64,000 bases of DNA from NCBI GenBank assembly GCA_030141605.1, contig JAQGDQ010000041.1, positions 186,001-250,000 of the forward strand, read 5' to 3'. Source of the DNA: Tubiluchus corallicola. Lineage: Eukaryota; Animalia; Priapulida. Positions within the stretch are counted from its first letter, which is position 1, and the number at the start of each line of letters is the position of its first letter. The notes under the pieces were generated by a model that saw only the letters and a program-made list of their open reading frames with translations, made no database searches and had not been told where the DNA came from. Of the stretch, positions 16,285-52,284 are shown one piece after another. Position numbers and translations under genes: made by a program.

Positions 16285-16464
16285 AGTAACTTGCCAAGAA
16301 ACTTGCAGTAGTGATCAGACTAGCAAAACACTACTCTTGTGAATTGTTTGTCTCTACATCAGCTAGAAACTGTCGCTAGTTTTTGCAATGAACAGAGGTT
16401 GTTTCTATTTGCTTCTCTCTCTTTCTCTCTCTCTCACTCTCTCTCTCCCTCTCTCTCTCTCTCT

Positions 16465-16556
<92 letters not shown>

Positions 16557-16570
16557 TCTCTTTCTCTCTC
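16285..16570 (+). repeat. Dispersed ~130-bp element with (CT)n tail, copy 2
   Basis: agtaacttgccaagaaacttgcagtagtgatcagactagc...ctatttgct(tc)n. Confidence 0.85.
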
Positions 16571-18281: not shown

Positions 18282-18485
18282 GTAAGTTTTATTAATAGGC
18301 CATGTGTAAAAACATGCATCACCATAGAGATGTAAATTACATTTATTCCTTGCCTGCCCATCAGTATCTGATTCACTGTACATTAAAAGAAATTCATAAA
18401 CAATATATGTTGTACAGCTTTAACTTACTACAGATATTACTTGCAGCATGTTTGTACTTGATACTGAAGCCAACATTTCTTACAG

Positions 18486-18717
18486 TTCAAGAAGCTGATC
18501 GTTTGTTGGCTTGTTTAAACTGTGCACAGAAGCACATTGATGTGACAGTGAGGGCTCTACATACCAATTTAAACAACATAAGAACAATGCTAATGTCATT
18601 GGGACTAGTACAGCACCCAATATTCAAGCTCTTCTACAGATATAGATGCGAGACTGATATCCGGGTTTTTATCGGAGTAGTACGAAGACACAAGGTTGCA
18701 ATGACTATATATGCTTG
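18486..18717 (+). CDS. FANCB: FANCB-like exon
   Basis: ttacag|QEADRLLACLNCAQKHIDVTVRALHTNLNNIRTML...IYA(W)|gtaaat, phase 1-2. Confidence 0.65.
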
Positions 18718-20013
18718 GTAAATGTGTTTTATTTTCTTGTCCAGAATGTCAATGTTTTCAAATATGGCCTTCCACTTCAGGCTGGCAATGTCTCAATTCT
18801 CCTGCCTTTTGTTTTTTCCACATCCTGCTCATTGTTCAAAACGAAGAAGCTTGTCCCATATTTGACAATAGCGTGTATGTAAGAGTTTTAGAATTGCCAT
18901 ATCAGTTTCAACATAATTCTCCGTCAGAATATACTGTAATAATGCCCGATTTACATACTGTACCATCGGAATGAAAAATTTCAATATTGAATACTTTATG
19001 TCAAATTTCCGGTAGTTAGCAGTAAATACATTGTTTGACAGCCTTTTATATGACTATTCAATGTCCCGTATCAAAGCTGCGTGTATGCAGCTTGTGTAAA
19101 GGGTTGCCAGTTTCTGTGATTGTCCTCCAGATTGATTCCTGCAGCATACAGTGGGCAATCCTAGCATGCCTATATTACGTATGGCAAGAAAAAGCATGTA
19201 GAAGCAAGAAAAAAGAAGCACCTGCATTGACCGAAGCAATTATTTAGAGGACAAGTTGAAATGAAACTTTTGTATAACAACATTCTAGTAAAACCAAATT
19301 TTTATTTTAGTCAATCATTCTGTAACCACTTTTTCAGTGTGACATGCTAAAAATATTTTTGCTGCAACTGTGTGATATTGTATCGTGGTTATGTATTCCA
19401 AATTCATTTGGCATTATTTTGAAATATTAACCGTCGTAGTAATTATATTTGCATAATCAGGCCATATTTTTTGAGGTTAAACTTCAATATTACTTTCAAA
19501 TTCAGTAACTGACAGTAATTCTCATATACCAATTCTTATATGGTTTTTAAGCAGTTTTATTCACCACTTACAATGTGACACTAAAATTCAGTAAATTAAT
19601 GAAAGCACAACTCATATCCAGAGATGAATGTGCTGCTGCTAGACAAGTATGGGGTTGATAATGTTGCGTTTGGCCACTGATTATAGCGTTTGTTTACACG
19701 ACAACATCCTGGAGGATTTTTGAGAAAATATTATACTATTATTGTATTAAGAAATTTTGTAAATGTAACTGTCTGTAGGTAATTACTCAATGTAGGCCTT
19801 ATTTTTGCCGACAATGGGACTTTTAGATCATTGCAGTACCAGCTGTTTGAAATAGTGATTGAAAAAATTTGAGATTCCAATGCAATTTCTTGGTAGCTAA
19901 ATATACTGATCTCAGATATTCAACTTTTGAAATAACTGTGATTTTACGCTTCTATTACAAACAATTTAAAAAGATCAGTTTCTCTGAAAGATTCTAGTAA
20001 TCTTTATTTTCAG

Positions 20014-20302
20014 GAAAGAACAACAAATATCGCTGTTCCTCATTTCTTTCTACAACAAATTTCCAGACGATATCTGTATTCTAGAAGAATCAGCAAAACG
20101 GAAAACACCAAACGCTGATCTCGACAAAACTCTTGCGTTAAAAAGCGCTAATCAACATGCGTCTCAAGACTCAAAATCGGCTTGTTCAAGTGATACAACA
20201 AAAGACAGGAATTGTGATGATTACTCAATTGACATGACAACTATCTGTCCAAAGTTCAAAGCAGAACAGAAGCCAGATTTTCAAGATACTAGTAAATCCT
20301 GA
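20014..20302 (+). CDS. FANCB: FANCB-like last exon, up to the first in-frame stop
   Basis: ttttcag acceptor, phase 2, KEQQISLFLISFYNKFPDDICIL...; FANCB-like C-terminal helix continues in frame past the stops to 20449. Confidence 0.6.
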
Positions 20303-21580
20303 CAAATTACAACGTATAGCATTCTTCAGTACTGATAACTTGCGACTTCAAAAGCAGTTTTTGACTCTGAGCTTATCGTGAAGTGTCTTGCATCTATACA
20401 AGTTAGCCTAGATAGAACAGCAAGAGTTGATGCAGACAAGATGGTTTAATAGTTAATTACTGAGGACTGAGCCACAACTGTTCCTTGTTAATCAACGATT
20501 CTAATTCCACCAATGAGTAATAATACATAAAGATAGTAGTTTAAAAACCTGTTACTTGGCATCACCTTATCAATAAGAAAATTAAATACGGCATGCTGTC
20601 CGAAGAATTTTATAGAAAAATAGAAATTCCATGTGTATAAAAAAATTAGTCTAGACCTTTTGCTAGTATTATTTCATCACAAACATTTCAGTAAAAATCA
20701 GAGAATGGTGTCACAGAATTTAATTATTTATTACAGTTACCTTTGTCAACCATCTTAACAGCTAAACCCCAGACAAATAGATTACAGTATTAAAGTACAA
20801 AAGGGTAATATGGTACTATTAAGACTGTAAATAACATGCATGTAACAACCTAATGCCATCATTACATTTTCCTTGAACATGTATATGTAAATTACCATTT
20901 CTTAAAACTGAAACTTATACAGTTTTTAATCTAAAAATCACCCTCAAAATATTTACACATAATTTACACCCAATTTACATTTCATAAAGAATGTGCATTT
21001 TATTATTAAAAGCGTGTGTATATAGTTACCGTGGTAGGTACAATCAGAACCTTGATCCTTATAAAATGTTAACAAAAATAAAATTTTCAATCCAATGTGT
21101 TGAAAATATGACACTGCAGTGCAAAGCAATAATTTTTTACATAATTATTTAATGCTTTTAGTTATACAGAAATATCAGCTACACAATTTTTGTTAATAAA
21201 AATTTCTCTTGTTAAACACATAATTTAATAATAGTTGATTCAATATTTATAAATTATAAAATTAGAGTTCATTCCCATGCATTCTACTGGACTTCACATT
21301 TTTATTTTACTGCATTTTGTTTTGATGGCCAGCTACAGTGCAAGCCTGTCACGAAATTGACTTTGCTTCAAGAAATGGTGTAGAAGTTAAAAACCATAAT
21401 GATGCCTAAATTCTCAATGAGCTAAAAAAGTTTAAGTTTAGCCACTTATGCTAGAAACATTTTTGAGAATAGCCAAAGTTTTCTGCTATGACATTTTAAT
21501 GTCCAAGTGAATGGTAGAACACAGTCAGAGGGTGTTCTTTAACTACAAAGTACGTCAATGAACTCAAATTCAAATCATAA

Positions 21581-21781
21581 TTACTCAACACCAAAATAAT
21601 GAACAATTGGTCTTACCCATGCGACTTTATAACGATGCAGTACTGCTATGGTAACAGCACATAAACACATGAAAATAGTTACAATAAAAATGTCTTTAAC
21701 TATCAGTTTAAAGTATCCCGGCTGCTTTTGTTCAAGTTCTGCTGCTTCAGCATTGAAAAGCCCGTCTGTTTTCTCAATTTT
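21581..21781 (-). CDS. Chromodomain-transmembrane protein, last exon (predicted TM helix)
   Basis: ttttcag|KIEKTDGLF...KDIFIVTIFMCLCAVTIAVLHRYKVAWVRPIVHYFGVE*; phase 0; AATAAA downstream (~21301). Confidence 0.7.
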   Translation of the reverse strand, partial: KIEKTDGLFNAEAAELEQKQPGYFKLIVKDIFIVTIFMCLCAVTIAVLHRYKVAWVRPIVHYFGVE

Positions 21782-23196
21782 CTGAAAAGTAAAAATTACA
21801 TTGCAAAAACAAGCCGACTGGTTCCTAATATGAACCCGGTGTAGCATTAAACACAGGTGTGGAAATAAGCCGACTGACACATAGCATTGAATATACATAC
21901 ATATTTGCTTAAAGGCAGAAGCACGAAAAAATGACACACCATTCAAACGCAGTAAAACTGTGTAAATTATCTCCTGTTATATTACACGCACCACCACACA
22001 ACTTGAATAATAAATCAAAAACTTAATTAATGGTGAATATGCCCAACTAGTGATGACGTCGCAAACGAACATAATATTCAACAGCACAAACATTCCATGA
22101 GCAGGTGCCACTCATTTGTGAAACTGAAAATTGAAATACAGTGCTACTGTACAACATTCGGTGTGATATATAAAATCTTGAGAAATTTTAAATTCAAAAT
22201 TCAAATTTCAGGTGTACCACTATGCTCATGCATGAGCTTTTAGACGTGTCCACTAAATCTCAACTGGACGGCTCTGAACTGAGAGGTACAGCACCTGTTT
22301 TTGTGCAACATGTTTCCGAGATGCAGGCACTAATACCCATCTAACTAGCAAATGTCTAAATACACACAGCAGGAAGAAATTAGCTGTGCGAATAAAAATT
22401 ACGTTTCTGTGGTAATGATTCTTTCACGTAAGTAATTTTTGAAAAAAGTATGTTCACACTTTCACTTTATTGCTGAAGTCAAACAACTGTTTAAATTTCA
22501 TATTGCAAAGTTCAGAAATCTGACAATATCGCTTCCAGGCTGCTTCTGTGCAGATTTACAAGTTTTATACCATGTATGGGTATATGTATTCCAAAGGGCA
22601 CAAAGGTCAAGCTCACTGAACTGATAAAAAACCTGTGAGAGAGGCTACGAATTTGTTCAATACATATTAGATTCACATTCATACTTTAACAATTAAAAAT
22701 TTGTGTGGCAAATATACACGAAACAGTTAAAATTTTCAACAGCTTGCAGTACAGTACATAAAACTGTTGCTAAGCCACTTCTGCTTAATTTATTACGATT
22801 GCAGCTCAGCAACACAAGAATTAATCAACACAGCTGTATTTTTGGTTTAGCTATTTCCGCATTGTAGAAAGAAATTTGCCCGGGACAAATATTTGAATAA
22901 CAAATTTTTCAAAATTCCCACCCCAATACAAATAGCTGGCCTCTGCAATAACCAAATCCGGAAACCTGGTGAAACAAAGTGAAAGCTATCTACCTTACTG
23001 CACTGACTAGTAACAAATCGTGTGTTTGCGCCTGAGTTTGATACGTGAATTTTAAATTGACTCTTACTGAGTACACAAGTGTACGTCAATAATACGCAAA
23101 CACACACAATAAAGTTCTCACAAAGAGAACATAAGTGGCACAGCCAATGAAAAGTGTGTAATTTTTAAATTTAATTGTTAAAAATTCATTACCTAC

Positions 23197-23409
23197 CTTG
23201 TCAACAATAATTTTCTTCAAGTTTATTTTGCTTCCCTGTTTTTTCTTGTCAAGGATAGAGCGTGCTAAGTCCTCCATGTCAGAATCTGAAACGTCTAATA
23301 ATGTTCCACGTGTTGATGGTGTTACTGGAATCTCATTGGGACTAACCGAGGGTTTCACTGCCATAGTCAGCTTCTTTGCTGATGTTTGCACTTTTCCTAT
23401 AGTTTCTAC
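23197..23409 (-). CDS. Chromodomain-transmembrane protein, exon 4
   Basis: tttgtag|VETIGKVQ...DVSDSDMEDLARSILDKKKQGSKINLKKIIVDK|gtaggt, phase 0-0. Confidence 0.75.
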
Positions 23410-23874
23410 CTACAAAACATCAAGATTACTGTGGTTACAACAAATACAATACAAAACTGTTTCGTAATATACAATATTTAGGAATGTGTATAATCGCATG
23501 CTGTAAATTGCTTCATAATAATTATTGCAGGACATTACCCACTGACCCGACATCCTAGCCCGGACACATGTCAATGATTTCATCATTCTAAGGAGCTTTT
23601 GCATTACAAATAAATGGAACAGACAGCAAAAGCAGTCAACTATATTTGAGATCTGTTATGATGACAGTTCAAATTAGAGACTACAGACAACAAGCCATTG
23701 CCACAGCTTTAAATGAAAATGAATAACCTTATAAGACACAGATTTATCTAGACGTACACGACAACATAAAAAAAATTAAATAACCCCCAAGCCAAAGGTA
23801 TGAGCTGAAATATGGTTTTCAGTTAACAAATTATGCATATTTTTCCTGCACACAGAAAACAATGAAAAATATAC

Positions 23875-24003
23875 TTTGTTCACGGTAACTGTTTCCATTA
23901 TTTGTGTTTTAGGATCTGTTGCTGATGTCTTAGTGCGTGATGTAGAACGACGCGAACTTCTCTTCATCTGGCTACTGGTATCTTGCTTCTCGCTAGCTGC
24001 CTG
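23875..24003 (-). CDS. Chromodomain-transmembrane protein, exon 3 (basic Ser/Arg-rich)
   Basis: NAGNAG acceptor (tagcag), QAASEKQDTSSQMKRSSRRSTSRTKTS...VNK|gtatat, phase 0-0. Confidence 0.7.
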
Positions 24004-24434
24004 CTAAACATAACGAAAAACAAAAAGTCGAAAATCACCAGCTGATGCTAGTCAGATACAACGAACATGTCGTGCTTTGTTAAAAGCTGGTTTAAAACAA
24101 TTCGTAATTTTATATTAGGTAAGCAGGCTTAACATGCTTTGCAAGTTAAGAAAATGCTTAGTGTCAATTTTTGATATGTATGGGTCTCCCAGCCCACATC
24201 TGTATGTAAACCACAAATGCAATTACATGTATTATGTATTGTGAAGTGGGTTGAATAAAAAATAAAAATAAAAAACAAGTTATTATTTTTCTATACAGCT
24301 CAGCAAACTTGAAGCCTTCAATTATGGCGGGAAATGAAACGTAGCTAAATTATCAAGGAGATTCATCTTGGATGAGACAGTGAACTGGCAGGACCATTTT
24401 ACCCTTGTTTTGATTTGCTTCCCTCAATAAGTTA

Positions 24435-24872
24435 CCGTATTTTCCCGTGTATAAGAGACCCTTTTTTGCTCAGAATTTTCACTTTAAAAATAGGGGGTCT
24501 CTTATACATGGGAGTAAGTCTTTTCAATAAGATGCATAAATTGTGACACTAATGATTTTAAAGAAATAAGTGCTCTACAACTGTTTTGCGTGTGGCGTTC
24601 GACTATGAAGCGGTTGTAAGCAATACAAGCATCGTGACACAGACATTATCTCCTCGTTTTCTCTTTTCCTGTTACAGGTTTGCAGGTACGCACTTTAATA
24701 TATACCAGTACTCTTTTTCTACAACACATTAACTGGTTTTATTTTGTTTTCAGTACCGCACTGAGTTGAAAAAAGTTGTACTCTACCCTCTAAAAATGTC
24801 CGTCTGAAAAAACTTTTTTCCAGAATTTTTGCCTAAAAATTGAAGGGGTCTCTTATACACGGGAAAATACGG
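24435..24872. mobile_element. Tc1/mariner-pogo (Tigger-like) MITE
   Basis: Perfect ~27-bp TIR ccgtattttcccgtgtataagagaccc, TA TSD on both sides, internal extra TIR copy at ~24493. Confidence 0.9.
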
Positions 24873-25934
24873 TAAATAAATGGGGCAGTTTGGCAATGGA
24901 ATGGTTTTCCAAGTAATCACCTAACTGTTTTCTATAACCAGGCTTGCTTGATTTTTATTGCCAAGTATTGTCTGTGGTCACTCAACTGTTCTACACGCCC
25001 AAAGTAGTATTACTTGTATTTACCTATGCACGGGTGGTCCATTTTTGCAAAATCTAAGGTCGGCAATAAATCAAAAAAATGCCGACACTCTAATCTAATA
25101 GCAATCATTTTATCGACAAATGTCTTAACTGTCACCTTTTCTGATTTCAGTACTGGGCCAAACCTAGAAATAAGTGAGTGTTTAATAAAAGAATATGTCT
25201 GTGTGCAACAACAAGTTTCTGATGTGCTACTAAAACCATTCCAATTGCCACATTTTTCTACAATAATATTTAAACATCAGAAACATGTGGCAGTTAAAAT
25301 AAGTACTACATGCATATTTTTTGACCACAGAAAAGAATGTATACTGTAATGCAATATCAAAATACAATGTGATTAAAAAATCAATCCATTTTCTTTTAAC
25401 TAAGCCTTTCCAAATAAGTACAGTCCAACCTCATTATACTGCTCTACCCCCCCCCCCCCCCTACGCTGTGCACTGTTAAAATGGCCAGGAACGAAACTTA
25501 TCAGACACATATTCAAAATGTAACCTTTTATACCATCTCCCGTTACCTGCCATCAGATTAAAATATATGTTCAACCTTAATAGCGAAATACCGCCAGGGG
25601 CTTCTCGAGATAATGACAGGTGTATGAGGTGGCTACATGCTCAACTGAGTTGCTGACATTAACCAGACATCATGTGTTATATAAAATAATGCATGTTATC
25701 ATGCTTTGATTGTTTGCAAGCTATATCGAACATTGTACAATCATAATACTGCAAAATCATTGTCAATGCCTTGCGCATTCATAAAGGCGCCTGACAAGAA
25801 AACACGTGGCTCTTTTCTCGACAGAGAGAAGCGTGATATGTGCTTGTTTTTTAACAATTATCCAAGTAGAAAAACTAGAAAAACTTGTACCTTATGATTT
25901 TATTAAAAATGCTAAATACCTTCGTATACACGTA

Positions 25935-26802
25935 CAGTCTAACCTCGTTATCTCGCCACTGTCCGTCTAGGGCAAATTTTTGGCGAGAGGCGAGTATGGC
26001 GAGATATAGGGAATATAACGAAGTTAGTCTATATGTATATACATACTGTACATAATAGTTGATTAACATAGTGTTCCTCTATGTACATATAAAATATATT
26101 TCGCATTATGATACCACCAATCAACATTAAATCAGAAATGAAAAAATGTCATAAAAATAATCTTAGAATGTTACTTTTTTATTTAAAAAACCTTTTTCGA
26201 GTATACACTTAAATGCAATAAACTTAGCAAAAGATTTAGAAATGTTCACAAATGAGTTACTGACGACTGAAATAATTCAGAAGAGACGACTGTTTCATTG
26301 ATCATACACGCAAGCAGTCAACACGACGTTTAATCAAACACAATCCTTGAATATCGTCGCTTGTAACTCATGTAATGTTGCTCACACTTTGTGGAAACTC
26401 TAGCTTAAACGCAGCTTTGGTGTTATACAGTAAAGATATCGGTGACGCTTTAGTTTCTCTGCGCATTAACCAACCACAGCACTCCTAATCTAATCCTGGT
26501 GAGACACACACTAGATTAATTATGTCTGTCTATCGAGTACAGCAGCATTGTCTACATGCCGCAGTTATATTCATCGACACGCGGTATATGTATTGATCGA
26601 TTCACCTCTGAGTTTGTCTGTTTGGCGACATAACGAATATAGTTTACATAAGCACTCATCCTAGCATGACGTGGCGAGGGCGAGAAGCGAGGGTGGCGAC
26701 TTAACGAGGTAAATATCAAAGCAGGAAATCCGTCCTGGTACTTTCTATGGCGAGAGACGAGTTTGGCGGCATAACGAGGGGCGAGATAACAAGGTTAGAC
26801 TG
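25935..26802. mobile_element. pogo/Tigger-like MITE
   Basis: TIR cagtctaacctcgttatctcgcc / ggcgagataacaaggttagactg, TA TSD, multiple subterminal tggcga-taacga repeats. Confidence 0.9.
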
Positions 26803-27164
26803 TATCTCATTTAAATTGCAAAGGTATGAGTTAATGTACAGTAAAGAACACTGAATTTTGCATATAGCTTAACCAACAAGCATTCCTCACACTGAATTTT
26901 GCTAATGTACTACGTAAATAAAATATTAAGCTCTTCATAATACAAAAGAACCAAAGATGTTATGAATATAATACAGTAATTAATTCGGATTAATTAAATT
27001 GCTGCGCTATGTACATAACACTGCTGTTCTTTTTTATGATGATATTTAGTATTTTTATGATTTAGATTTTTCACATTAGTCTAACCTAACAAAAATTCAT
27101 TCTTCACAATAACACGAAATTAAAAAAAGACAAATAGGAATACGCCGATTAAGTTTGCACTTAC

Positions 27165-27329
27165 TTTTTCCATCAATGCTTGTTCTTTGTTGAAAAGAGA
27201 CACAGCTTCTCTAGCGCCATGCAGACCTCGAGCCGGTTCCCATGAGTCTTCTTCAGAATCGTACCCTTTCCATCGGACCAGGTACTGTTTTCTTCTATTC
27301 ACGAAACGAGCATCCAAGATTCTCTCCAC
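27165..27329 (-). CDS. Chromodomain-transmembrane protein, exon 2 (chromodomain)
   Basis: tttcag|VERILDARFVNRRKQYLVRWKGYDSEEDSWEPARGLHGAREAVSLFNKEQALMEK|gtaagt, CDYL/HP1-type chromodomain. Confidence 0.92.
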
Positions 27330-28335
27330 CTGAAATGTTCGCCGTTTATATATACAAAAACTAAACTAAGCCTAAAGATCAGATTAGCCCTGAAGTTAGT
27401 CGTCTGAGAATTCACATTAGCATAAAACTAGCATTAGTTTAAATTCATAACTTTTTTGGTGTTTTTATCTGCTAATCAGTTTCAAGTGTTTTGTTAGTGT
27501 ATTCTGAATTCTATGCCAGCATAACATATACTCACCAACAGATGCTTAAAAGCCATAGAGTTCACTGAAGTTAAGCTGAAGCTCGTACCATAGCATAATA
27601 AACTCTCTTAATTCCTAAAAACTTTAGAAGCAACTATTCTATCGGATTATATATATAAATCTTCTACATGAGTTACAAGATCTGTCTCCTTAGAAAACAG
27701 ACATACATAGACTATGAAATTACAACTAAGCAGTAAGTAAGCAAGCAACTTTAATTATTGTCATCATATTATAGTACATATAATGAACAGATAACAACAA
27801 CAAAGCAGTCTTCTTTGGGGGTTTAAGTGGAGAGCACATGACATGTATGTCTAGGTACCAGGTTTTTAGAAATACAAACCAGGTAACTCTTATGCCCATA
27901 TAGTAAGAATAACAATGCAGTGAGCACTGAGCATGTTGTGATTTTAACTTTCCTTTCTTAAAATGACAAAAAAGAAAAATTCTTTCCATTCTTAGAGACC
28001 ATTTAAATAAAAAGACAAAACACATTACACAATGTACACTACTACATATGTGAGCTACAGAGCATTTAAACAAAAACAAAAGAATTAAAGTTAACATTCA
28101 TATTTCACATTTATTTAAATATTTAAGCAACAAAAATATGTTATAATTTATTGTAACACATTTAAAGCATGTAATGTTCCAATATAACACAGCATAAAAC
28201 AGATTAATTAAAAAAAATCATACAATTATTTAACAACTCAGATATGCCACAGTTAAACAAAATGTTATCCAATATTATCCTTTCAAAGCCCTTAAAAAAC
28301 AACCGCTGCATTATAGTGTCAAAAGTCTTTGTGTG

Positions 28336-30765
28336 TTATGAAAGATCTAGTCTCCTGTAAAGAACTAGCTCTGCCTGGTCGGGAGTAAATTTAAATACCC
28401 CAAGTTCATGTAAAACTGCTACAGGGTCTACAATAGCTGTATTGTCCAATGAACTCTTGTGTAATGCATTGTATAACACGTCCTTTAACAGCAGAGCCGA
28501 GCCAGCTCTTAATGTCAACAACAGACAACCTTCTTTTATATCTTTGAAGTAGTTTTCAGGACGTTGAGTATATTCACCAAAAAGTGGAAAGAGTCCACGA
28601 GTCATGTCATATTGAAATTGGGTCGCTCCACCCTCATTAAAGTGATTAGTACAAATCACTTCTTCAAAGACGTATTTATTGAGCAATTCTGCAAAGCGTT
28701 GCCAAACTTCCAAGAAAACAAGATGACAGAGCTGCTCTTCCAGTAAATGAAGACGATCCTTGATGACCAGCAACAATCCGCACGCAGAATCTGATATAGT
28801 CATTTTTAAGTACTCTGTTGGCTGAGGCATAGTCCTCCAGTGGTCATTCCGGTAAGGTTTATTGCGAGCCTTGACATCAAACATCACAGTTTTGAGAACG
28901 TTTTCAATCATTTCATTACGAACATGAGCATATAATTTTACAATATTGTCGAACACTGCACCTTCAACATAACCTAGTTTGCCAGGATCTACATCTCCAA
29001 TCACCTGACCCAGTGATAACTTCTTGACACTGGACAAAGAAGTGGAACGAGTAGATGAAAATGCTGCTCCATCTGTTTCCTCTACGACAGGATCTTCCTC
29101 ATCCTCATCTTCGGATAATAATGGTAAGCTACTATCGTGAAAACCCTCGTAATTTTCTTTGTAATGTTGTAGCCAAATAAACTCGGCTAAATCGCACCAC
29201 TTGGTCAGAATGGTAATTATGTAATTAACAGCATTGAGAATCTTGCAGTAGTTACTATTAAGATGAGGAAGAGTACGCTTCACTTGAACCAACCTCTGAT
29301 GAAACTCTGACAGAAGATCTAGCTGAAGATCCAGAAACTGCAATGTGTGCAAAGGAGACGGTAAGTATTTGTACCGCTCTGTGATTATCGTCATCAGTGT
29401 CATGAAGGTCTCTGCACACTCTGGAATTTTCGTATCATCGACATCATTAACGCTGCCATAATGAAGGTTCCATGCAGATGAAGCATCTAGCATGGCATCC
29501 ATCTTCCTTGAAGCAACTTGACCTTCCAAATGCAACCAACGGGTAAAGATGACTTTGTCACAAAGAATATGACTACAGCTAGGCAGATGTGAAGGATAGT
29601 CCAACTGCCTCAATTCTTTATCAAACAACAAAGCTTCATCTACTGTATGGAAAAAGTTAGTGTCATCTTCCAACTTCGAAAAGTCCAAAATGAGTTTTTC
29701 CACAACTAACTGCACTATACCCCTCATAAATTCGGTTGTGGCTTCCGTTGATTTTAGCCCGTTTTTGTTAAACATGGGTTGAATTTTTTGGTGAATGAAA
29801 TTAGAATTATCCTTTATCCAAGTAAGCGCTTGTGTCATGTACCACTCCGGCTTTGCAATGTTGTTCGTCAACTTTTTGCCACAAAAGTGATAGCGAAAAC
29901 GTTTAGCAAGTGGCTTCAGTAAAAGCTGCATAGGAAGGCAAAGTGGACGCCAGGTCGGATACACTGTTGAAATGACTGGTTCATCATTAATTAAAACTTG
30001 TGGAAGTTCAACTTGAAGCAAGTAAGTGAACAATAATTCAAGTTTCTGGTCAATATCAGCCTGCAACAACTTTGTAACTGACTTTTGGTTACCAGCCACC
30101 TCAGCAATTTTCACTGTTGGCCAATTTAATGCAGACAACAACTCCTCAAACTGAACACCAAATTTATCCAACAGTATGTTATACCACAATAACACAGTTT
30201 CATTCACAAAACACACCAAGTTTGTACATGATGAACCTTGAAGTACTTTGTTAAAATTAGCCAGCTGAGCAAAAGAAGTTGAAGCCCTGTCATCGGCTTT
30301 GATGAGAAGAGCCGACTGAATAGCTTCATTACATTCGTCAACCTTCAAAATCCACTCAAAATATTGAGAATATCGTTCCAGGGCATCCATTAGTTCAAGT
30401 TTTTTGCCCATTTCCTCCAGTACCGGCTGTGCATTGTCAACATGTGCGTTTATTGACAGCAGCACCGATTCTTGACGACTGCTCAAGGTACAAATGTTTG
30501 ATACAGCCAACTCAGCTTGACTCAATGTATCGCCGATGGTAGAAATTTCAACATGTTCAATATTAGGATTTCTGACCAAGCCAAATTTCGTTTCCAACAT
30601 TTGTTTTCTCTTAGAAATTTTATTTAGAACCTTTCTGCTTTGGTTTAAAAGCTTAATGTCTTCACCAAACTGAGCATTAATAGCAGAAATTACACTGCTC
30701 AAAGAAGAGATTTCACCGTCGGAGGCAGCCATTTTGCTACGCAATAAAGTAGCTCTTAATGACAT
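28336..30765 (-). CDS. RINT1: RAD50-interacting protein 1 (RINT1/Tip20 family), intronless ORF nested in intron 1 of the chromodomain gene
   Basis: 809-aa uninterrupted ORF with RINT1 motifs KRFRYHF.G.K.TN...KPEWY..Q.L.WI, FFHTVDE.LLFDKELR, PECAETFMTL...ITERY, NHFNEGGA.QF.YDMTR.LFPLF. The second ATG (aaaATGGCTGCC, 30732) may be the ancestral start. Confidence 0.95.
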   Translation of the reverse strand: MSLRATLLRSKMAASDGEISSLSSVISAINAQFGEDIKLLNQSRKVLNKISKRKQMLETKFGLVRNPNIEHVEISTIGDTLSQAELAVSNICTLSSRQESVLLSINAHVDNAQPVLEEMGKKLELMDALERYSQYFEWILKVDECNEAIQSALLIKADDRASTSFAQLANFNKVLQGSSCTNLVCFVNETVLLWYNILLDKFGVQFEELLSALNWPTVKIAEVAGNQKSVTKLLQADIDQKLELLFTYLLQVELPQVLINDEPVISTVYPTWRPLCLPMQLLLKPLAKRFRYHFCGKKLTNNIAKPEWYMTQALTWIKDNSNFIHQKIQPMFNKNGLKSTEATTEFMRGIVQLVVEKLILDFSKLEDDTNFFHTVDEALLFDKELRQLDYPSHLPSCSHILCDKVIFTRWLHLEGQVASRKMDAMLDASSAWNLHYGSVNDVDDTKIPECAETFMTLMTIITERYKYLPSPLHTLQFLDLQLDLLSEFHQRLVQVKRTLPHLNSNYCKILNAVNYIITILTKWCDLAEFIWLQHYKENYEGFHDSSLPLLSEDEDEEDPVVEETDGAAFSSTRSTSLSSVKKLSLGQVIGDVDPGKLGYVEGAVFDNIVKLYAHVRNEMIENVLKTVMFDVKARNKPYRNDHWRTMPQPTEYLKMTISDSACGLLLVIKDRLHLLEEQLCHLVFLEVWQRFAELLNKYVFEEVICTNHFNEGGATQFQYDMTRGLFPLFGEYTQRPENYFKDIKEGCLLLTLRAGSALLLKDVLYNALHKSSLDNTAIVDPVAVLHELGVFKFTPDQAELVLYRRLDLS

Positions 30766-32909
30766 TTCTATCTAAAACAGGTCTCCATTCACCTTGATTT
30801 TATTATTGACGGCTGATATGGACTGAAAACTTACAACTGAGTAGACAAAGCAAATCATTCAAAATCTCTGGTAGACATTACAATATTATATAAATGTATT
30901 TTACATAGAATACCTATGTCAGCAATGTCACTGTTGGGTTTGCAAAAGCTTATAAAAACTCCAATTTTAATTTTATACTCAAGAGAGGAAACGAGCAACA
31001 GACATATAAGGAGAGAGAAAATTATAGGCAAAAAGCCTAAATATAGGCTTCACCTTGTCGATCTAAAATAAAACGGTAATATTATAAGCACGTGCTTTTT
31101 GTAAAACATCCGAAATAGTTGAAAGTATCAGTATAATTAGTGAGGATGGCTTGCTAATAACCGACACAAAGTGTAAAGGCTTTACACCTGTTAGAAGTCA
31201 CTGTCGCAGCACAACACACCTGATGTGATATGTTATGCAGAAATGCGTGTGATGAATATAATTCTTATCAGTGCTGACCTGCACATGACAAATTAACACA
31301 GCTCTTTAAAAATTTGTAAAAAAGTCAAATGTACCTCGAACGATCCAAAAACCAATAGGCTCTAACCTGTACCTAGTATCTTATCCTTGTGCCAAATATT
31401 CTACATTACTCAACGACCAAGAAAGCTTACAACTGACAACAAACATGTATAAAATATCCAAATGGAAAAGCTACCAATCATTGTGGTAACGGTCCTTGCC
31501 TTTATACATTTGGCAAATTCTCTCTAAATATGCTTAGACATGCTTAAAAGTAAATAGTTTATGAACATGCTAAAAAGAGCCAAGAACAGCTCTTGTTGTA
31601 CCACTGTCTTTGGTCTATAACCCTCTTCATGCAAAGCCTTACAAAATGGCAAATATTTCATAAATATGTGGCCATAAGCCATATGAACTAAAATGTTATA
31701 AGGAACTACCTACTACAGAAAACAAAAGCCATTTGATCCGAATTCAATAGAAAAATGTCAGGTTTGCTACGTTGGATCGCAACTTAACGAGTCTACTATC
31801 AATAAAGAGTTGACACAACTCTTTTTATATACAGGGCTATCCCTAAAGTACCTGTGTTGATTTACATTTTGTTAGACAATTAGTCAACAATCATATCATG
31901 TCTTTGAGTATAGTATACATAGATTTAAATTGGAAACCGTTTTTTTAATGTAATTAGAACACAATTTTTGCATAATCTGCACATTTGCTACTTCTTAAAA
32001 CTGTTTTCAAACAATTCTTTAACTCACACACAAATCTATTCATCCTCCCGATGTAACACACGTTAATAGGAACTGTTACCACAGGTGGATACATCTAGGT
32101 GTCAAAAGCGGCCCAAAAAATATCTACCCACCAGGTGCCATGATTCATACATATATACGTACTTGTAAACAAACAGACCAAAACAATAATTCTATTGTTG
32201 CCCATTTCGAAGCACTAGGCAACAATAAAAGCACTACAGCCAACAAGCTAAATGATGTATTTACAATCAACAAGTCCAATGTTGCATAAAGGTAATGTTT
32301 AAATGATAGAGGAAAGGTTGAACCTGGAAATGGAAATAATATAGTAAAAATAAGAACGCTATTACATCGAATTCCAAGCTCTCGGTTACAAAAAATCGGA
32401 AGTTCTCATTATATTGCAATACAAATGGCTCAACACACCCTCTGTTACAAGAAAAAACAAGAAAGCATGTGGATATCATTGTTTGGATACCAATACCAAT
32501 ACCAATATGTGGCTATATTTCACTAATAAACCTAAAAGATTCCGAATTAATTGCTGATAAATTCAACAATTTGCTTCGAAATTAATTTATAGCTAACTTC
32601 GAAATGTAGACAGTGAACACAAATTCAAGAAAAGTGTCAAGATAAAATCAAGAATTTCAGAAATTTTGTGTTAATGTTTCATAAACTCAGGAAACATAAA
32701 GACAATACCAAACTTAGCAATACCATCAATTCAATTTGAATTACTTTCATTATGCTAAAATTTCACACAAATTTGCAATATGAGTGTAAATAGACAAGGT
32801 GAAAAAAATCGTATGGTCATCAAATCAAACCACCTCCAACAAAAATAACCTCTGTAAATTCTAATTTCCAGTGATTTTAACGGCAGATAAAGATATTATA
32901 TCCTATCTA

Positions 32910-32914
<5 letters not shown>

Positions 32915-32961
<47 letters not shown>

Positions 32962-32986
32962 GAGAGAGAGAGAGAGAGAGAGAGAG
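32915..32986. repeat. (CT)23 directly fused to (AG)13: palindromic microsatellite
   Basis: Read directly from the sequence. Confidence 0.95.
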
Positions 32987-33744
32987 TGGGGGAGCACAGC
33001 AGTGAATGTGAATGACAACCTTATGTGAATGTGGCAACAGTGTAAAATGAAAAAAATAAAGTAAGAGAGAATAACAATCACCAGGATTGCCATTTAGTCA
33101 ACACAGAGCCAGTGAAGGCTTACATACTGTTTGTAGAGATGTATACTGGTTTACTGTCCTGTGGTGATCTCATCTACCATCTTGCATAACAACGCTTATA
33201 CTTTTATTTCATAATTATGTGTTTAGTTACTTCCAAGCCAAGTTATCCATACTGTTTTATTTGATGGTTTTTGCACCTGCTCAACCTTATTAAAAGTATC
33301 AGTCACTTACAGTTTTGACTACATGACTAAAAAACCGAAGAGAAAACAAGTTTCAGGAAAAAGTGCTGGTTGCCACTTCACTAGCACATTTAATGATGGC
33401 ATTGCTTAATGATTGTTGTGCATATATGAGTCCATTTGACTACAGCAAACAATAGCAAATAGTCATACTGTACACTTTGTTACAGCTAAAATTTTCGGTG
33501 TTTACACAGTACCCAGGCTACCAAATGGCAGTCATTCAGTTTCTCTCGAGTGGAAAGTTTGTGAGTTAGCTTTACATGCCACATCTACAGTATCAGTTAC
33601 CTATAGAAATGTATAAAATCCCTCATACATTCACACTTCACAGGCATCAAACCTGATGAATTCTTTGTTAGAAGTATCACAATCGCTAGAGAACACAGTT
33701 ATAAATTCTACCAGAGGAGAGCCGATGTGACTCTCCAGTGATAA

Positions 33745-34638
33745 ATGTCGACAGGAACAAGAAGTAGAGCACGTTTACTGACGGTACTTGGTGACGTTGT
33801 TACACAAGCTACACCAGAAATGGGAAATGAATATGAAATTAACTCGCACCATGCAGAAGATGAAGACCACTCCCCAGAAAGTGAATGTGGAATAGAGGAC
33901 ACAGAGGATTTTGATCTTCAAGCTACTCTCAAAGTGCTAGTAAAGCAAGTTAAAGCAGTTAATCACAAGGTAACCAGAATCGATAAAAAAACTGAAGACA
34001 TAGAAAAATCCCAGCAGTTCATCTCGGATAGCTTTGAGACGATGAAACATGAACTTGCATCAGCACGCCAAGAAATCAATATCTTGAAGACAAAAAATAA
34101 TGCATTATCAGCTACAGTTGAAAAACTAGAAAAAACTATAAAGGACAAGGATCTGGAAATTGATAGTCTGGACCAATACAGTAGGCGTGACTGCATTGAG
34201 ATTTCAGGTGTGCCGCTGACAAAGGATGAGAATGTTTCTGATATAGTTCTGTCCATTGCTCTGAACATGGATATCCCACTTGATAGGAACGACATTAGTA
34301 CAGCCCATAGGCTTCCACCGCCTAAGCGAGGAGGAATTCCAAAGATAGTGGTGAAGTTCACTCGTAGGCTTGTCTGCGATCAGTTTTATGACAGCCGGAA
34401 AAAAGCTGGAAAAACAGGTCATCTTACTAGTGCCACTTACACCGTAGACAATCAGATCTACATCAATGAGCTGCTCACGACGAAACGAAGGACCCTTTTT
34501 CTCAAATGTCTAGAATTCAAGAGAAACCATAACTACAAGTACATTTGGATTAAGTATGGTAGAATTTTTATTCGAGCCAGTGACAATAGTAATACTGTTG
34601 AAGTTCAGAGGGAGGACGACTTGAACACCCTAAAATAA
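33745..34638 (+). CDS. LINE ORF1 (coiled coil plus RRM-like/CTD)
   Basis: 297 aa with LDQYSRRDCIEISGVP, DISTAHRL, IVVKF, IYINELLT and YKYIW..GRIFIR motifs. Confidence 0.88.
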   Translation: MSTGTRSRARLLTVLGDVVTQATPEMGNEYEINSHHAEDEDHSPESECGIEDTEDFDLQATLKVLVKQVKAVNHKVTRIDKKTEDIEKSQQFISDSFETMKHELASARQEINILKTKNNALSATVEKLEKTIKDKDLEIDSLDQYSRRDCIEISGVPLTKDENVSDIVLSIALNMDIPLDRNDISTAHRLPPPKRGGIPKIVVKFTRRLVCDQFYDSRKKAGKTGHLTSATYTVDNQIYINELLTTKRRTLFLKCLEFKRNHNYKYIWIKYGRIFIRASDNSNTVEVQREDDLNTLK

Positions 34639-34684
34639 AGACTTAGATGAGTAAATCCTGTTAGTTACATTTTATTACATAGTT

Positions 34685-37600
34685 ATGGTTTACCCATGCA
34701 CTTTTTGTCTACACAATTGCAAAAATAATCAATTTAGTATTTTCTGTGACATCTGCAAATGTTGGACGCACTTAAAATGCACAAGCTTAACAAGAGAGCA
34801 ATTTGTGACTTTATCAGAAACTTCTGATGTCTATTACTGTTTAAAATGCATTAATGAAGTTATGCCGTTTCAAAACATAGAAGACGAGGATTTGTCAATG
34901 AATTTCTCACATTTTGTTAATGTTGAAGATATCGAGCAAATAACTACTGCTTTGGAAGAATATCTTTCTCCAAATCCTAACAAAGCTGATTCTTATGATC
35001 CTGATCATCATTCGGTTAAGTTCACATGTAATTATTATAAACTTGAATCTCTAAAGAATGACATCAATCTCAATTCAGATAAAAACGATTTTTTGTTTGT
35101 CCATATGAATACGAATAGTTTAACCAAAAATTACTCGAGTATGCTCGATGTACTTTGTTATTTTTCACAGGCCCCTGATGTTATCGCCATCAGTGAAACT
35201 CGTATAAAAGATCATCAACCTTTTTTATGTTCTCTCCCCGGCTACACTTATATTTCACACAACTCGGTAACTAATGCAGGTGGTGTAGCCTTATATATTA
35301 AAACTTCTATAGACTTTCAAATTAAAAGAAATTTGAAAATAGAATGTGATAAGGTGATAAATGATACCTTGCCCCCTGTGCATAGCCATATTCAGGTTGA
35401 ACATCTTTTTGTAGAATTGTCAACAAAATTTTCTAGTAAAAATATTATTTTTGGGGTGATCTATCGCCACCCAAACACTCCACTCAGACATTTTCATGAA
35501 GAGATGGACAATCTTCTGAATAAAATCAGCAAAACAGATAAATTGGCCTATGTGTGCGGAGATATTAACATCGACTTATTACAGTATGACTCTAAGCAAT
35601 GTGTTCAGGACTATACCAATATGCTTTTTGCCAATTACTTTACACCATTGATTACTAAGCCTACACGTTTTTCTTCTACAGCTAAAACACTTATTGACCA
35701 TATTTACACTAACTCCCCTTCTTCCCCCATTTATGCTGGTGTAGTCCTGAACCAAGTATCAGATCACCTACCTGTTTTTGCCATTTGTAAAAATTCTTAC
35801 TTATTGAAAAAACAAACAAAAATCAGGAAACGAAAGTTGAATAATATTAATTCTGCAAGTTTTTTAAATGACCTAAATCAAGCATTTATGGAAGCAGGAG
35901 TTAAAGACAATAGCGATATAAATCAAGCATTTAACGATTTTTTTCGTCTTTCACGAATGTTCTGGATGCTCATGCACCTATAATTACATTAAGCAGGAAA
36001 CAAACAGTTACATTTCAAAAACCCTGGCTTACATCTGGCATACTTACGTCTATCAAGATACGTAGTCGAATGTTCAAGACACATAAATTATCTAATTCTC
36101 TCTACAAGCAGCAACTTTATAGGGCCTACTCTAATAAATTAAATCATATAAAAGATTTAGCCAAAAAGAAATATTATGAATACCAGTTTCAAATTAATCA
36201 AAACAATGTTAAGAAAACCTGGACCATTATTAATAATATAATTGGCAGAAAAAACAAACAAATGCAAATTCCTAAGAAACTAGTGTACAATGGACATTCC
36301 TCATCTGATCCTGGAACTATTGCTAACATGTTCAATGAATTTTTCCAATCTGTGGGTAATAAAATGGCAGCTAATATCCCGCTTAATCCTAATGATTTTA
36401 GCACATACCTTTCGAATCCAAATTGCAACACCTTCTTTTTAAATCTAGTAGTAGGAATTGAAATAAAAACACTTATTAATAATCTCAGTGATTTAAAAGC
36501 AAATGGACCTGAAGACATTCCAATAAGAATCTATAAATTGACAAAAGACGTTATTACACCGATACTAGTTACTTTAATTAATAAGTCTTTCACAGAAGGC
36601 ATATTTCCCGAAATTTTGAAAATTTCCAAAATCATTCCTATTTATAAAGCAAGCTCGCCAGATAATCCATCAAACTACCGACCAATTTCTTTATTATCTC
36701 CTATTTCACTACTTTTTGAAAACATTCTTTACAAAAGGTTAATTTTGTTTCTAAACAACTCTAACGTCATAACAAAATACCAGTTTGGTTTTCGGAAAAA
36801 CCATTCGACGGCACTTGCTACAGCCGAAATAATTGATAATCTCCTATTTAATCTTGATAATAATACAATAACCTGTGGCATCTTTCTCGACTTATCTAAA
36901 GCTTTTGATTGTGTACAACATGACATTCTTTTGACCAAGATACAGCACTATGGCATTAGAGGCACCCCTTTTAATTTAATGAAATCGTATCTCAGTAACA
37001 GACGACAATTTACAATGGTAGGCAATGCTAAATCCACTCTTCTTAATGTCACGACGGGCGTACCACAAGGTTCTACACTGGGCCCCTTATTCTTTTTACT
37101 CTATATCAACGACCTCCCACAAGCAACTAATTTCACTGCACGTCTTTTCGCCGATGATACAAACCTTTTTTTAACTGGTCGTGAATTGCACTCACTTCAA
37201 ACTCAAGTTAATCTTGAATTAAAAAAGGTTGATACCTGGATGCAGACTAATAAGTTGTCAGTTAACTACACGAAAACCAAATATATGCTGATTGCAAAAA
37301 AACAAACAGATACGCATAACAATTTTACAGTAGAAATAAATGATAGGACAATCACACAAACTCACTACATAAAGTACTTAGGACTTCATATTGATAATAA
37401 ACTCTCGTGGAAGACGCACATACAAACCATTAATCAGAAAATTAGCAAAACATCTGGTATCTTTTTCAAACTCAATTTTTTGAGTACCTACATTCTGAAA
37501 ATTCTCTATTATTCCCTTATCTATCCATATCTCTATTATTGTATATTATCCTGGGGAACTGCCAGTGTCTCTTCACTCAAACCTTTGATAGTCGCACAAA

Positions 37601-37986
37601 ATAAAATTATCAAATGCATCACACGAGTAAAAAAGTTTGACCATGTCACACCATCTTATGTGCAGTTAAATTTACTCAAACTTAAAGATATTTACCAATT
37701 AGAACTTTTCAAATTCATGCATAAATACAGTTTTGGTACCTTGCCCGAACTATTTAAAAACTATTTCACCAGAATTGTAGAAATACATCACTATTCAACA
37801 CGTGCTGCTGCTAGAGGAGATTTTTATCAGGACAGATACTTCACTTCTTTTGGGCTAAGCACCTTAAAATATAACGGCACAGTGCTGTGGAATAAACTTC
37901 CAAGAGAATTCACTAGCAATTCCTTCTTTAGATCAGCTACTCGAAAATTTCGTTTACACTTACTTTCGCATTACTGTTCTTCATAA
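34685..37986 (+). CDS. LINE ORF2: PHD finger, APE endonuclease, reverse transcriptase; one frameshift at T7 (35938-35944)
   Basis: C4HC3 PHD; IAISET, GDINID, IDHIY, SDHLP; GVPQGSTLGP, FADDT, KYLG. A -1 shift restores LDAHAP...KPWLT. Confidence 0.9.
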
Positions 37987-38699
37987 ACTTACAGATATTT
38001 TTTCTATTTTGATAATTTGCAGCATACACAAATATGTGAAAATAGTGCTTTATGATAAAATAAATCTGTCACAAGTTTATTATCTAGGAAAATATCATAT
38101 TCGTGTATTTATTAGGATACGACTGCATGAATTGCAATCACAAATTAGTCAGCAGTATCAATTTTCGGTATATTACTCAAACTTAGCTGATCTTATTTAT
38201 TTTGCTTTTGTTTTGTTTATTAATCAGACACATTTGTTATTATTTTAATGCATGCATTTTGCAGTTAGGTTCAGTTCACTATTTTGAAAGTTTATTTAAA
38301 TTTCTGTTTGGCCAGCTTACTTTACACTTCATTTAATTTGTTTTTTATTATGTTCATTTAATATTATTGTTATTATTTTGCATGTTTTTCTCATTCTGAG
38401 TTATATATCATATTTTGATAGCTTCAGTGTCATCTCACTAATTACATACATCCATTGAAGGGTGGCTTGACTAGTTGACCTTCTTGGTCTTTCGCCATCC
38501 TATTTCCATTGTAATAACTAAACACATTTACTTGCTCAATTATATAATGAATATGGAAATAAAATGCACGTTTGAATTGAATTTGAATTGAATTGAATTG
38601 AATAGAACTGAAAGTACATTATTACTATTTTACTTAGCAACTTCATCTGTTTAAATTTCTCTAACATGTAATGGTAAACAAAAAGCAATTATAACTATA

Positions 38700-39318
38700 A
38701 CCCAAATAATGTGGAACAAATGAATATAAAAATGATCAAAATACAAACTGTCATATCGTCCATGTACAATTCAAAATGAGAAAAAAAGTCATTTAGCAAA
38801 ACTAAAATTTAAAATTACCTTTCAAACAGTGAATTAAATCATCTGTAAAATACATGCATTGAAAATATAACAAAAGTGTCTGAATAATAAACAAAGCAAA
38901 AAACAAATAAGATCAGCAAAGTTTGAGTCTTATAGTTATAGCAAAAACCGATACTGCTGGCTAATTTATCTGTAATTCATGCAATCCTATCTTAAAGTAT
39001 ACATGGATATGATATTTCCCGAAAATACGATAACATATTTGTGAGCTCAGAATAACAAAAAAATAAAAATAACTCTCGAATTTATGAAGAGCAGTAATGA
39101 GAATTTACAGTGTAAAGCGAAATTTCGAGTAGCTAATCTAAAAAAGGAATTGCTAGTGAATTCTCTTGGAAGTTTATTCCATATCAAAGAGGTGCTTATA
39201 ACCCAAATGAAGTAAGGTATCTGTCCTGATAGATATCTCCTCTAGCAAGCAGCACATGTAGAATAGTGATGAATTTCTGGTGAAATAGTTTTTGCATAAT
39301 TCGGGCAAGGTACCAACT
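38700..39318 (-). mobile_element. Inverted, diverged 3' fragment of the same LINE family
   Basis: 39109-39181 is the reverse complement of ~37888-37960; 39300-39316 matches ~37735-37750. The left boundary is approximate. Confidence 0.85.
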
Positions 39319-39576
39319 TTTAGTCGATTAGTCCGCCACATTTACAAAACATGTACATGTATGTATTATATATAATATTGTAAATGTTACAAGTGCTCAT
39401 GTAGCTGCTAACCGATAAGTCCCAGTACGTAACTACCGAAGCCTTGCAACGACGATAATATTAATAGTTTTAATACATTAACACTAACAGTACGCAACTG
39501 CCTTCCTAGGATCCTTGACTTTATTTTTCTAAAAATGACTACAAGTAGAAACAATAAAAGGCAATTATGCACAAAC

Positions 39577-39609
39577 CTCAAATAATTCTTCTGCACTGTC
39601 CCCACTCAT
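39577..39609 (-). CDS. Chromodomain-transmembrane protein, coding exon 1 (MSGDSAEELFE)
   Basis: In-frame stop upstream of the ATG; GAG|gtttgt donor, phase 0; completes the canonical chromodomain start EELFE|VERIL. Confidence 0.75.
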
Positions 39610-39689
39610 TTCTTCATTAATATTTATCGCTGATTTTGTTTTAACACTGATCTTTACCGATAACCGCCATTATGTTTAAATTGAGCAAT

Positions 39690-39735
39690 AGCGTGCGCTA
39701 TTGTAACGCTCGTTACTTACGTCATTTGCCACGAC
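39690..39735 (-). promoter_or_regulatory. Putative promoter of the chromodomain/RINT1 unit
   Basis: CpG-containing patch with CRE/ATF-like TTACGTCA (~39717) just upstream of a YY1-like ATAATGGCGG and exon 1. Confidence 0.45.
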
Positions 39736-40080
39736 AACTACATGGACAAAAACTTAAAGCAAAAGAAAATATTTTTCAAAAAAATAAAGGTTAAAAATCA
39801 TATTGAAACTTTATATAACTTACATGCTGTACTAATAACTAAAAGTCATTGCATATAGAGCTTGCATTAGGATTAAGGTAGTATAAAACTTGTAAATTCG
39901 TACTCCATTAAGTGCTAGGCAGTAGGCACAGCCATTAACAGTGTCATTTGAAACAAGTTTATTTAAAAAGCATTACATAAAGTTTGGAAAATATTTAGAT
40001 TATTCGTAGCACACACTTCGCTAACTGAGCAAGAGTTTAAATTACTTTTTGTTGTTAATAATATTAATAATATCAGAGTT

Positions 40081-40095
40081 ATGATGATGATGATG

Positions 40096-40137
<42 letters not shown>
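40081..40137. repeat. (ATG)n(ATA)n microsatellite
   Basis: Read directly from the sequence. Confidence 0.9.
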
Positions 40138-40140
<3 letters not shown>

Positions 40141-40184
40141 TCAGATCTGATGGTTTAGTCTAGTGGTAACGTGGCAGGTTGTGA

Positions 40185-40530
40185 GTTCGATACAGCAAAT
40201 TCGATTCGAACGAGTTTTTTATTCGAATTCGATTCGAACCTAAAATTAAAGATTTTAATGAATCAGCACTTCAACCACATACGTTATTTTATCATTAAGA
40301 TGTTTTAAACATCATGCAGTTCGCACAATTTAGTAGCGATTTCGATTTGATAATATTAAACTACTTATAAGAGGTTTTATATTGCAGAACAAAATCGTGT
40401 AATAGAGCCTATGCTTATGATCTTCGTAAAACTGCTTTTTGCTGATTAAGGGTTCAAAAACTTGTTCGAAATCTTTCAAACTGTATTCAAATTCGAAGTA
40501 CTGAAATTCGGTTTGATTCGAGTTCGAGTT
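40185..40530. mobile_element. TTCGAA-rich non-autonomous element (hAT-like family), fragment
   Basis: Similar to 59091-59240 and 59500-59560. Confidence 0.55.
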
Positions 40531-52212: not shown

Positions 52213-52284
52213 GTAAATTTTATGTATGATTGATGCATGATTATAACTAGTTGTCCTTCTGCCCTTCTCCTTTCTGTTCACGTA

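Follow-up and report, generated by a model that had tools for sequence, protein, structure and literature searches.

A predicted tail-anchored chromodomain protein in the priapulid Tubiluchus corallicola as a possible tether for silent chromatin

Which proteins read histone H3 lysine 9 methylation (H3K9me) at the nuclear envelope is an open question, and a predicted gene of the priapulid Tubiluchus corallicola may bear on it. The available part of a 2025 paper describes direct recognition of H3K9me2/3 by LBR or by lamin A/C as an unanswered question (PMC12339402), and CEC-4, a protein with a chromodomain, is described, in an excerpt of another, as lacking an obvious mammalian homologue (PMC4783997). 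The window analysed here is a stretch of 64,000 nucleotides (nt) from contig JAQGDQ010000041.1 (assembly GCA_030141605.1, positions 186,001 to 250,000). On its minus strand, between positions 39609 and 21581, a first-pass annotation had proposed a chromodomain protein with its own C-terminal membrane helix, possibly a nuclear-envelope reader of methylated histone H3. That interpretation is partly supported, in that the predicted gene model, the intact aromatic cage and the tail-anchor topology survive the tests run. The favoured reading, put forward tentatively, is an H3K9me reader, tail-anchored in the inner nuclear membrane, that would tether silent chromatin directly, in a layout resembling the nucleoplasmic arm of LBR. 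If this is true, an animal lineage built a one-protein heterochromatin tether by setting a CDYL-related chromodomain on a tail anchor of its own; with one reader and one anchor in 28 kDa, it would be the simplest natural heterochromatin tether. Such a protein in cultured cells could be used to ask whether reading plus anchoring suffices to move heterochromatin.

The first-pass annotation had drawn five phase-0 exons with GT-AG introns and an open reading frame of about 246 amino acids (aa), and its coordinates, lengths and frame were confirmed on the minus strand. The exons (33, 165, 129, 213 and 201 nt) are each divisible by three, every intron has GT..AG ends, and the spliced frame encodes 246 aa plus a stop codon, remaining intact over 741 nt with neither an internal stop nor a frameshift. 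The chromodomain, the cage, the Ser/Arg stretch and the hydrophobic segment that had been described were likewise found again, as follows.

39577 to 39609, minus strand: exon 1, coding part (11 aa), with the start codon and cage aromatic F10 (39582-39580)
27165 to 27329, minus strand: exon 2 (55 aa), chromodomain body with cage residues W31 (27272-27270) and Y34 (27263-27261)
23875 to 24003, minus strand: exon 3 (43 aa), linker that is basic and rich in Ser/Arg/Thr, with residues 80-91 encoded at 23964-23929; weak donor
23197 to 23409, minus strand: exon 4 (71 aa), linker with a Lys-rich stretch at residues 164-175 (23247-23212)
21581 to 21781, minus strand: exon 5, coding part (66 aa and stop), a hydrophilic lead, then the helix, then a short tail
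21638 to 21691, minus strand: predicted transmembrane helix, residues 211-228, grand average of hydropathy (GRAVY) 2.94
21611 to 21617, minus strand: strong internal phase-0 donor (score 3.84), 7 codons past the helix, altering the tail only
21000 to 21580, minus strand: probable 3' untranslated region (UTR), with AATAAA at 21306 and 21004

Exon 1 lies 12 kb upstream of exon 2, beyond a nested RINT1 gene and a retrotransposon of the long interspersed element (LINE) type; the first-pass annotation is silent on both, as it is on the internal donor of exon 5. Exon 1 provides both a start codon and a good donor. When open phase-0 upstream donors were scored against 46 N-terminal 6-mers from fetched chromodomains, it ranked top of 1338 with a score of 9.2 (runner-up, 5.9). 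A promoter-like peak in the observed/expected (o/e) CpG ratio coincides with it (0.85-1.78 over 39001-40500, against 0.55 window-wide). Ahead of the start codon, at 39670-39610 on the minus strand, lie two short ATG frames of 9 and 3 codons that may dampen translation.

Coding potential was scored with a three-periodic model trained on pieces of RINT1, a galactosidase gene and Jupiter, all from the same window. The score was equalled by none of 165 non-coding stretches for exon 2, by 2 of 371 for exon 3 and by none of 63 for exon 4. For the first 30 codons of exon 5 it was equalled by 8 of 995, with +8.3 bits in the frame that encodes the helix and -28.6 and -5.9 in the other two; for exon 5 as a whole, the figure was 16 of 82. 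A long last exon read in two frames was considered and rejected, the other two frames closing after 25 codons and 1 codon. Splice sites were ranked against all GT or AG sites of the window with unfitted matrix frequencies. Five of the eight fall in the top 3% and the exon 1 donor at 3.3%; exon 4 has both a strong acceptor and a strong donor, and the weak sites are the exon 2 acceptor (top 21%) and the exon 3 donor (top 32%). Run between the exon 2 donor and position 20400, an exon-chain search arrived again at the acceptors 24003, 23409 and 21781, scored 21.7 where 35 control stretches gave at most 18.6, and took a later in-frame end for exon 3 (23785 rather than 23875). Because the search recovered the acceptors and varied the chain, exons 3-5 are probably real, with an exact chain that sequence alone does not fix.

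Allelic differences were available from sequencing run X1, which may derive from the same sample as the assembly; 40 of 250 are listed. A DNA contig of this run covers 21396-21742 and differs from the assembly at four positions, two in the UTR and two in coding sequence. Both coding differences in exon 5 are synonymous in the helix frame (chance about 0.05) and both lie downstream of the helix, with none inside it; as a control, six of the seven listed differences in RINT1 are synonymous. Splicing of the five exons into one mRNA is thus a prediction from splice-site, coding and allele statistics, and a likely one, and the chromodomain-helix gene is probably real.

Exon 2 matches Pfam Chromo with an E of 1.6e-13 and 50.8 bits, above the gathering score of 25.1, and the domain spans about residues 10-60. 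Residues F10, W31 and Y34 align to the CDYL cage, as numbered in the available part of a preprint (bioRxiv 10.1101/820647), with F10 depending on the join of exons 1 and 2; the alanine pocket (V12, V29, W31 and L47) is also kept in the alignment to CDYL. A sequence search of the Protein Data Bank (PDB) was led by CDYL (E 4.9e-11), followed by CDY1, Rhino, CDYL2, HP1alpha and MPP8, while Polycomb CBX2 reached only 1.5e-5. Exon 2 is predicted to fold into three strands and a helix (pLDDT 85.9), and a fold search with this model was led by MPP8, CDY1, HP1alpha and Rhino (TM 0.81-0.95), CBX2 first appearing at rank 36. The fold matches were all chromodomains; for so short a domain, the best E was 3e-3, none reaching 0.001. 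In a chromodomain tree of 87 rows and 59 columns, built without MPP8, Polycomb, SUV39 and CEC-4, the domain fell in no starred clade. H3K9me-type readers come out ahead of Polycomb in the searches by sequence and by fold, which makes H3K9me a likelier ligand than H3K27me. The chromodomain would bind methylated lysines in ARKS motifs, most likely H3K9me2/3. CDY-type chromodomains also bind non-histone ARKS motifs, as the excerpted preprint reports (bioRxiv 10.1101/820647).

Downstream of the chromodomain, the linker includes the Ser/Arg stretch at residues 80-91, which contains four RS/SR dipeptides. What had been called an NLS-like motif, a nuclear localisation signal (NLS), is present as a Lys-rich run; it has only three adjacent lysines and no strong NLS pattern. 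The hydrophobic segment comprises 18 uncharged residues followed by an 18-aa tail of net charge +2, and in a hydropathy scan it was the sole membrane segment, lying within about 30 aa of the C-terminus. The soluble N-terminal part amounts to 23.6 kDa. AT-rich DNA often translates as hydrophobic sequence, so the chance rate of such a helix was measured: a comparable 18-mer occurs in 2 of 306 non-coding frames of at least 36 aa, and 2 of 228 strong control acceptors read into such a helix, none of the 228 giving a hydrophilic lead, a helix and a short tail. Those two control acceptors (60447, minus strand; 15796, plus strand) could belong to exons of unannotated genes. Modelled from its single sequence, exon 5 is helical with high confidence (pLDDT 96 and 91 across exon residues 31-50), as any hydrophobic stretch would likely be, and the modelled helix is unbroken over exon residues 21-62. 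No donor within exon 5 up to the helix end scores above -2.5. Joining the internal donor past the helix in phase 0 to 26 downstream acceptors gave tails of 0-55 aa; with tails this short and no downstream domain, a second helix or luminal domain beyond this donor was unsupported.

A mechanism can be outlined from these elements. The open frame, the cage residues and the hydrophobic helix are seen in the sequence; the five exons would be spliced as modelled, and, judging from hydrophobicity and tail charge, the product would be inserted post-translationally into the endoplasmic reticulum (ER) as a tail-anchored protein with its chromodomain on the cytosolic or nucleoplasmic side. According to the accessible part of PMC5450235, the ER is the favoured destination when a helix is hydrophobic and its tail carries little charge; the nucleoplasmic part of inner nuclear membrane proteins has a limit of about 60 kDa in the excerpt of PMC3082195. 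The helix hydrophobicity and the 23.6 kDa N-terminal part fit such insertion followed by arrival at the inner nuclear membrane; as for known inner-membrane proteins, the protein would pass through the peripheral channel of the pore and be retained on chromatin. CDYL and LBR suggest by analogy that it would there bind H3K9me chromatin, aided by the basic Ser/Arg stretch of the linker, and could be released by mitotic phosphorylation. That the anchored protein is made is considered likely, and for a protein so anchored an inner-membrane tether role is given slightly better than even chances; since the tether reading is the product of the two, it falls somewhat short of even. No chromodomain protein with a membrane helix of its own was found in titles and the starts of abstracts, most subscription papers being outside reach. 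The architecture appears to be new and the proposed function of a known kind; unannotated entries may exist, since no architecture query of UniProt or InterPro was possible.

Several observations weigh against the tether, and those from the searches for relatives are given here together with the searches themselves. Database queries were single exons rather than the spliced protein, and a 66-aa hydrophobic exon is a weak query. The last exon had no match among 18 candidates in a word search and none at E 0.001 among 1.84 billion representatives. A second search, with the chromodomain, matched 229 of 346 candidates, and among the best 120 of the 229, which were screened, there was no genuine protein with both chromodomain and helix. 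About 50 of these 120 rows are retrotransposon relatives, since the search was led by a retrotransposon stretch, and none of the 120 resembles the linker or tail. A hydrophobic 19-mer (at least 1.7) is present in three of them, all retrotransposon fragments; one, P0042, combines a chromodomain with a hydrophobic tail, yet it is part of a retrotransposon polyprotein and shows that this architecture can be a frame artefact. An earlier chromodomain search among longer proteins (0 of 7 candidates at E 1e-6) used too strict a cut-off, since a CDYL-level match would fall near 1e-6. In an atlas comparison the last exon reached at best 0.80, a low recognition, and the chromodomain fell into generic Chromo clusters; PDB searches with exons 4 and 5 returned one match each (E 0.54 and 1.7). 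The metagenome scan with the chromodomain gave 10 loci, comprising retrotransposons, one HP1 and unplaced proteins, with no orthologue, and the viral scan none in 15. Three of the metagenome loci (L001:7633-10173, L002 and L003) encode a polyprotein assigned by eye to the Copia type, in which a chromodomain sits between an integrase-like region and the reverse transcriptase. Gypsy chromoviruses are the elements for which chromodomains are usually described. Conserved RINT1 was itself missing from the metagenome scan (0 of 594 stretches) and from exact look-ups of RINT1 and LINE ORF1 (0 of 3), so the lineage may simply be unsampled.

Further points on the same side concern the gene model and the properties of the domain. 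The helix alone carries no coding signal, its score being equalled by 2747 of 3183 non-coding stretches, a result that is weak either way because the training genes lack a membrane helix. The exon 3 donor (score -3.2) is no better than the weak donors within the helix, and the only listed allelic difference in exon 2 is non-synonymous. No DNA contig bridges exons 2 to 5; run X2, taken as RNA by guess only, gave six partial pieces, none on an exon and none with a splice joint. The clasp pair (L9 with H48/G49) is mixed, of neither HP1 nor Polycomb type, which leaves the specificity of the chromodomain uncertain. An ACBD5 mutant with a tail charge near +3 went to mitochondria, according to the available part of PMC5450235. 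Extended past 20400, the exon-chain search dropped exon 5 for a GA repeat; up to 20400 it favoured a helix-less form that includes an additional exon:

22922 to 22965, minus strand: candidate cassette exon of 44 nt within intron 4, unproven, proposed by the exon-chain search

With this cassette included, exon 5 would be read in a shifted frame that stops at 21703, giving a non-hydrophobic product of 220 aa in which the helix is lost, and so this weak cassette could yield a soluble form. Equal-scoring cassette-like pairs number 6 in 128 kb of strand, from which one is expected in intron 4 about 7 times in 100. A tether combined with a frame-shifting switch between membrane-anchored and soluble reader is regarded as quite unlikely.

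The same cassette underlies one of the alternatives, in which the main product is a soluble chromodomain protein and the helix frame is minor or unused, the cassette being normally included or the exon chain being different. The choice made by the exon-chain search, the missing coding signal of the helix and the frame errors exemplified by P0042 speak for it; yet the first 30 codons of exon 5 look coding only in the helix frame, the allelic changes downstream of the helix are synonymous in that frame, and the cassette donor is atypical, with G at +3, unlike the eight listed donors of modelled exons in the window. This explanation is judged unlikely, as is one that accepts the anchor on the same sequence evidence and places it elsewhere, on ER, mitochondrial or peroxisomal membranes, facing the cytosol, where the protein would read non-histone methyl-lysine or hold a partner. 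Membrane-anchored Tudor readers such as TDRKH occur on mitochondria. The binding of non-histone ARKS motifs by CDY-type chromodomains, the want of a strong NLS pattern and a tail charge of +2, a value around which small changes send tail-anchored proteins elsewhere, are consistent with a cytosolic-face reader, but so hydrophobic a helix points to the ER, whose membrane continues into those of the nucleus, the small basic N-terminal part suits inner-membrane proteins, and the nearest readers are chromatin readers.

The locus might instead hold a lineage-restricted, decaying or mis-assembled CDYL-type paralogue without a selected membrane function. The searches made found no relatives, the introns carry repeats and insertions, and no independent contig bridges the gene; the unbroken frame, intact cage, promoter-like CpG peak and synonymous changes in exon 5 nevertheless argue against decay, and conserved RINT1 is equally missing from the look-ups. 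This explanation is considered very unlikely. Least probable of those weighed is a latent reader parked in the ER, from which the chromodomain part would be freed by signalled proteolysis. SREBP- and ATF6-type factors reside in the ER membrane and are released by proteolysis on a signal. The predicted type II topology, the long low-complexity linker and the Lys-rich NLS-like stretch on the soluble side would suit this arrangement, whereas the 18-aa tail leaves almost no luminal sensor and the helix modelled for exon 5 runs unbroken through the region.

The window around the tether candidate is 34% GC with a CpG o/e of 0.55, and the neighbouring genes are of animal type; together with RINT1 and Jupiter, this composition points to an invertebrate-like animal.

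28336 to 30765, minus strand: RINT1, intronless, nested in intron 1 on the same strand (Pfam RINT1_TIP1, E 6.5e-112)
33745 to 37986, plus strand: LINE-type retrotransposon in intron 1, antisense, with ORF1 followed by endonuclease and reverse transcriptase in two overlapping frames
866 to 1810, minus strand: exons of the alpha-galactosidase family
52013 to 55515, plus strand: Jupiter gene

RINT1 has an acceptor 4 nt 5' of its second ATG (30736) and lacks an upstream CpG peak, and near exon 1 a GTAAGT donor is present at 39721; for these reasons RINT1 may share the promoter of the chromodomain gene by alternative splicing. The site at 39721 also overlaps a CRE-like motif. The LINE (33745-38200) has a PHD-like stretch ahead of the endonuclease and an ORF2 split over two frames near 35935-35983, and an inverted partial copy of its 3' end occurs just below exon 1 at 39109-39316. 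Introns 2 and 4 contain MITE-like inverted repeats and high-copy repeats (24422-24885, 25933-26804 and 22040-22450), at which run X1 depth rises up to thousands. On the plus strand, coding-like stretches over 14366-20302, with no Pfam match at curated cut-offs, suggest a convergent gene ending near 20302.

Comparison with known systems is framed by a Pfam scan at curated cut-offs of 150 of the 155 minus-strand frames of at least 36 aa downstream of exon 2 (the other five lie below position 1230), in which the only match was the neighbouring galactosidase exon. No ECH, chromoshadow, SET, ankyrin or Pc-box domain was present in those 150 frames, nor any LEM, Tudor, sterol reductase, SUN or MSC domain in exons 2-5 or the same frames, and tblastn with fetched proteins, including chromoshadow domains, matched the exon 2 region only. 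HP1 (CBX1, CBX3 and CBX5), MPP8 and the Polycomb CBX proteins share the canonical chromodomain fold and three-residue cage, and differ in the chromoshadow, ankyrin or Pc-box domain that is lacking downstream here. These proteins are soluble. CDYL/CDY is closer, providing the nearest chromodomain by sequence (45% identity) and the same phase-0 intron, placed just past the first aromatic of the cage and preceded by a very short coding exon. In 12 of the 16 CDYL-like proteins that were fetched, unrelated sequence takes over at that intron point, 11 of these ending in Q or K, and a CDYL splice site at the same place is described in the accessible part of Franz et al. (PMC2787366). The T. corallicola protein differs from CDYL/CDY in having no domain of the enoyl-CoA-hydratase-like (ECH) type and no similarity in the linker, with a membrane helix instead. 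The ECH domain is what defines CDYL; with none in the 150 downstream frames, the predicted protein resembles CDYL in its reader but falls outside the CDYL family.

Among nuclear-envelope proteins, CEC-4 resembles the favoured reading as a chromodomain protein for which the holding of H3K9me chromatin at the inner nuclear membrane is proposed or shown; the excerpts available state that its chromodomain can anchor such chromatin (PMC4783997, PMC7111258, PMC5045178). In those of PMC4783997 and PMC7111258 no membrane helix is mentioned and the attachment is left open, in contrast to the helix predicted here. LBR offers a similar layout: an N-terminal methyl-lysine reader, a Ser/Arg stretch, a linker and membrane entry near residue 211. 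The available text on LBR gives Tudor 1-60, RS 61-89, a second domain and a nucleoplasmic arm ending at 211 (PMC5617974). No sequence homology to LBR was detected despite these near-matching positions, and LBR has a Tudor domain, a long RS run, eight helices and a sterol reductase, against one chromodomain and one helix here. The emerin/LAP2beta-like topology that had been suggested holds as a tail-anchor layout, with a small N-terminal fold, a low-complexity linker, a single C-terminal helix and a short tail, and the LBR arm is resembled equally; LAP2 further includes, in the partial source available, a membrane isoform, LAP2beta, as opposed to the soluble LAP2alpha. No LEM domain is found in the T. 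corallicola protein, and where LEM proteins reach chromatin via BAF, this one would read the histone mark itself.

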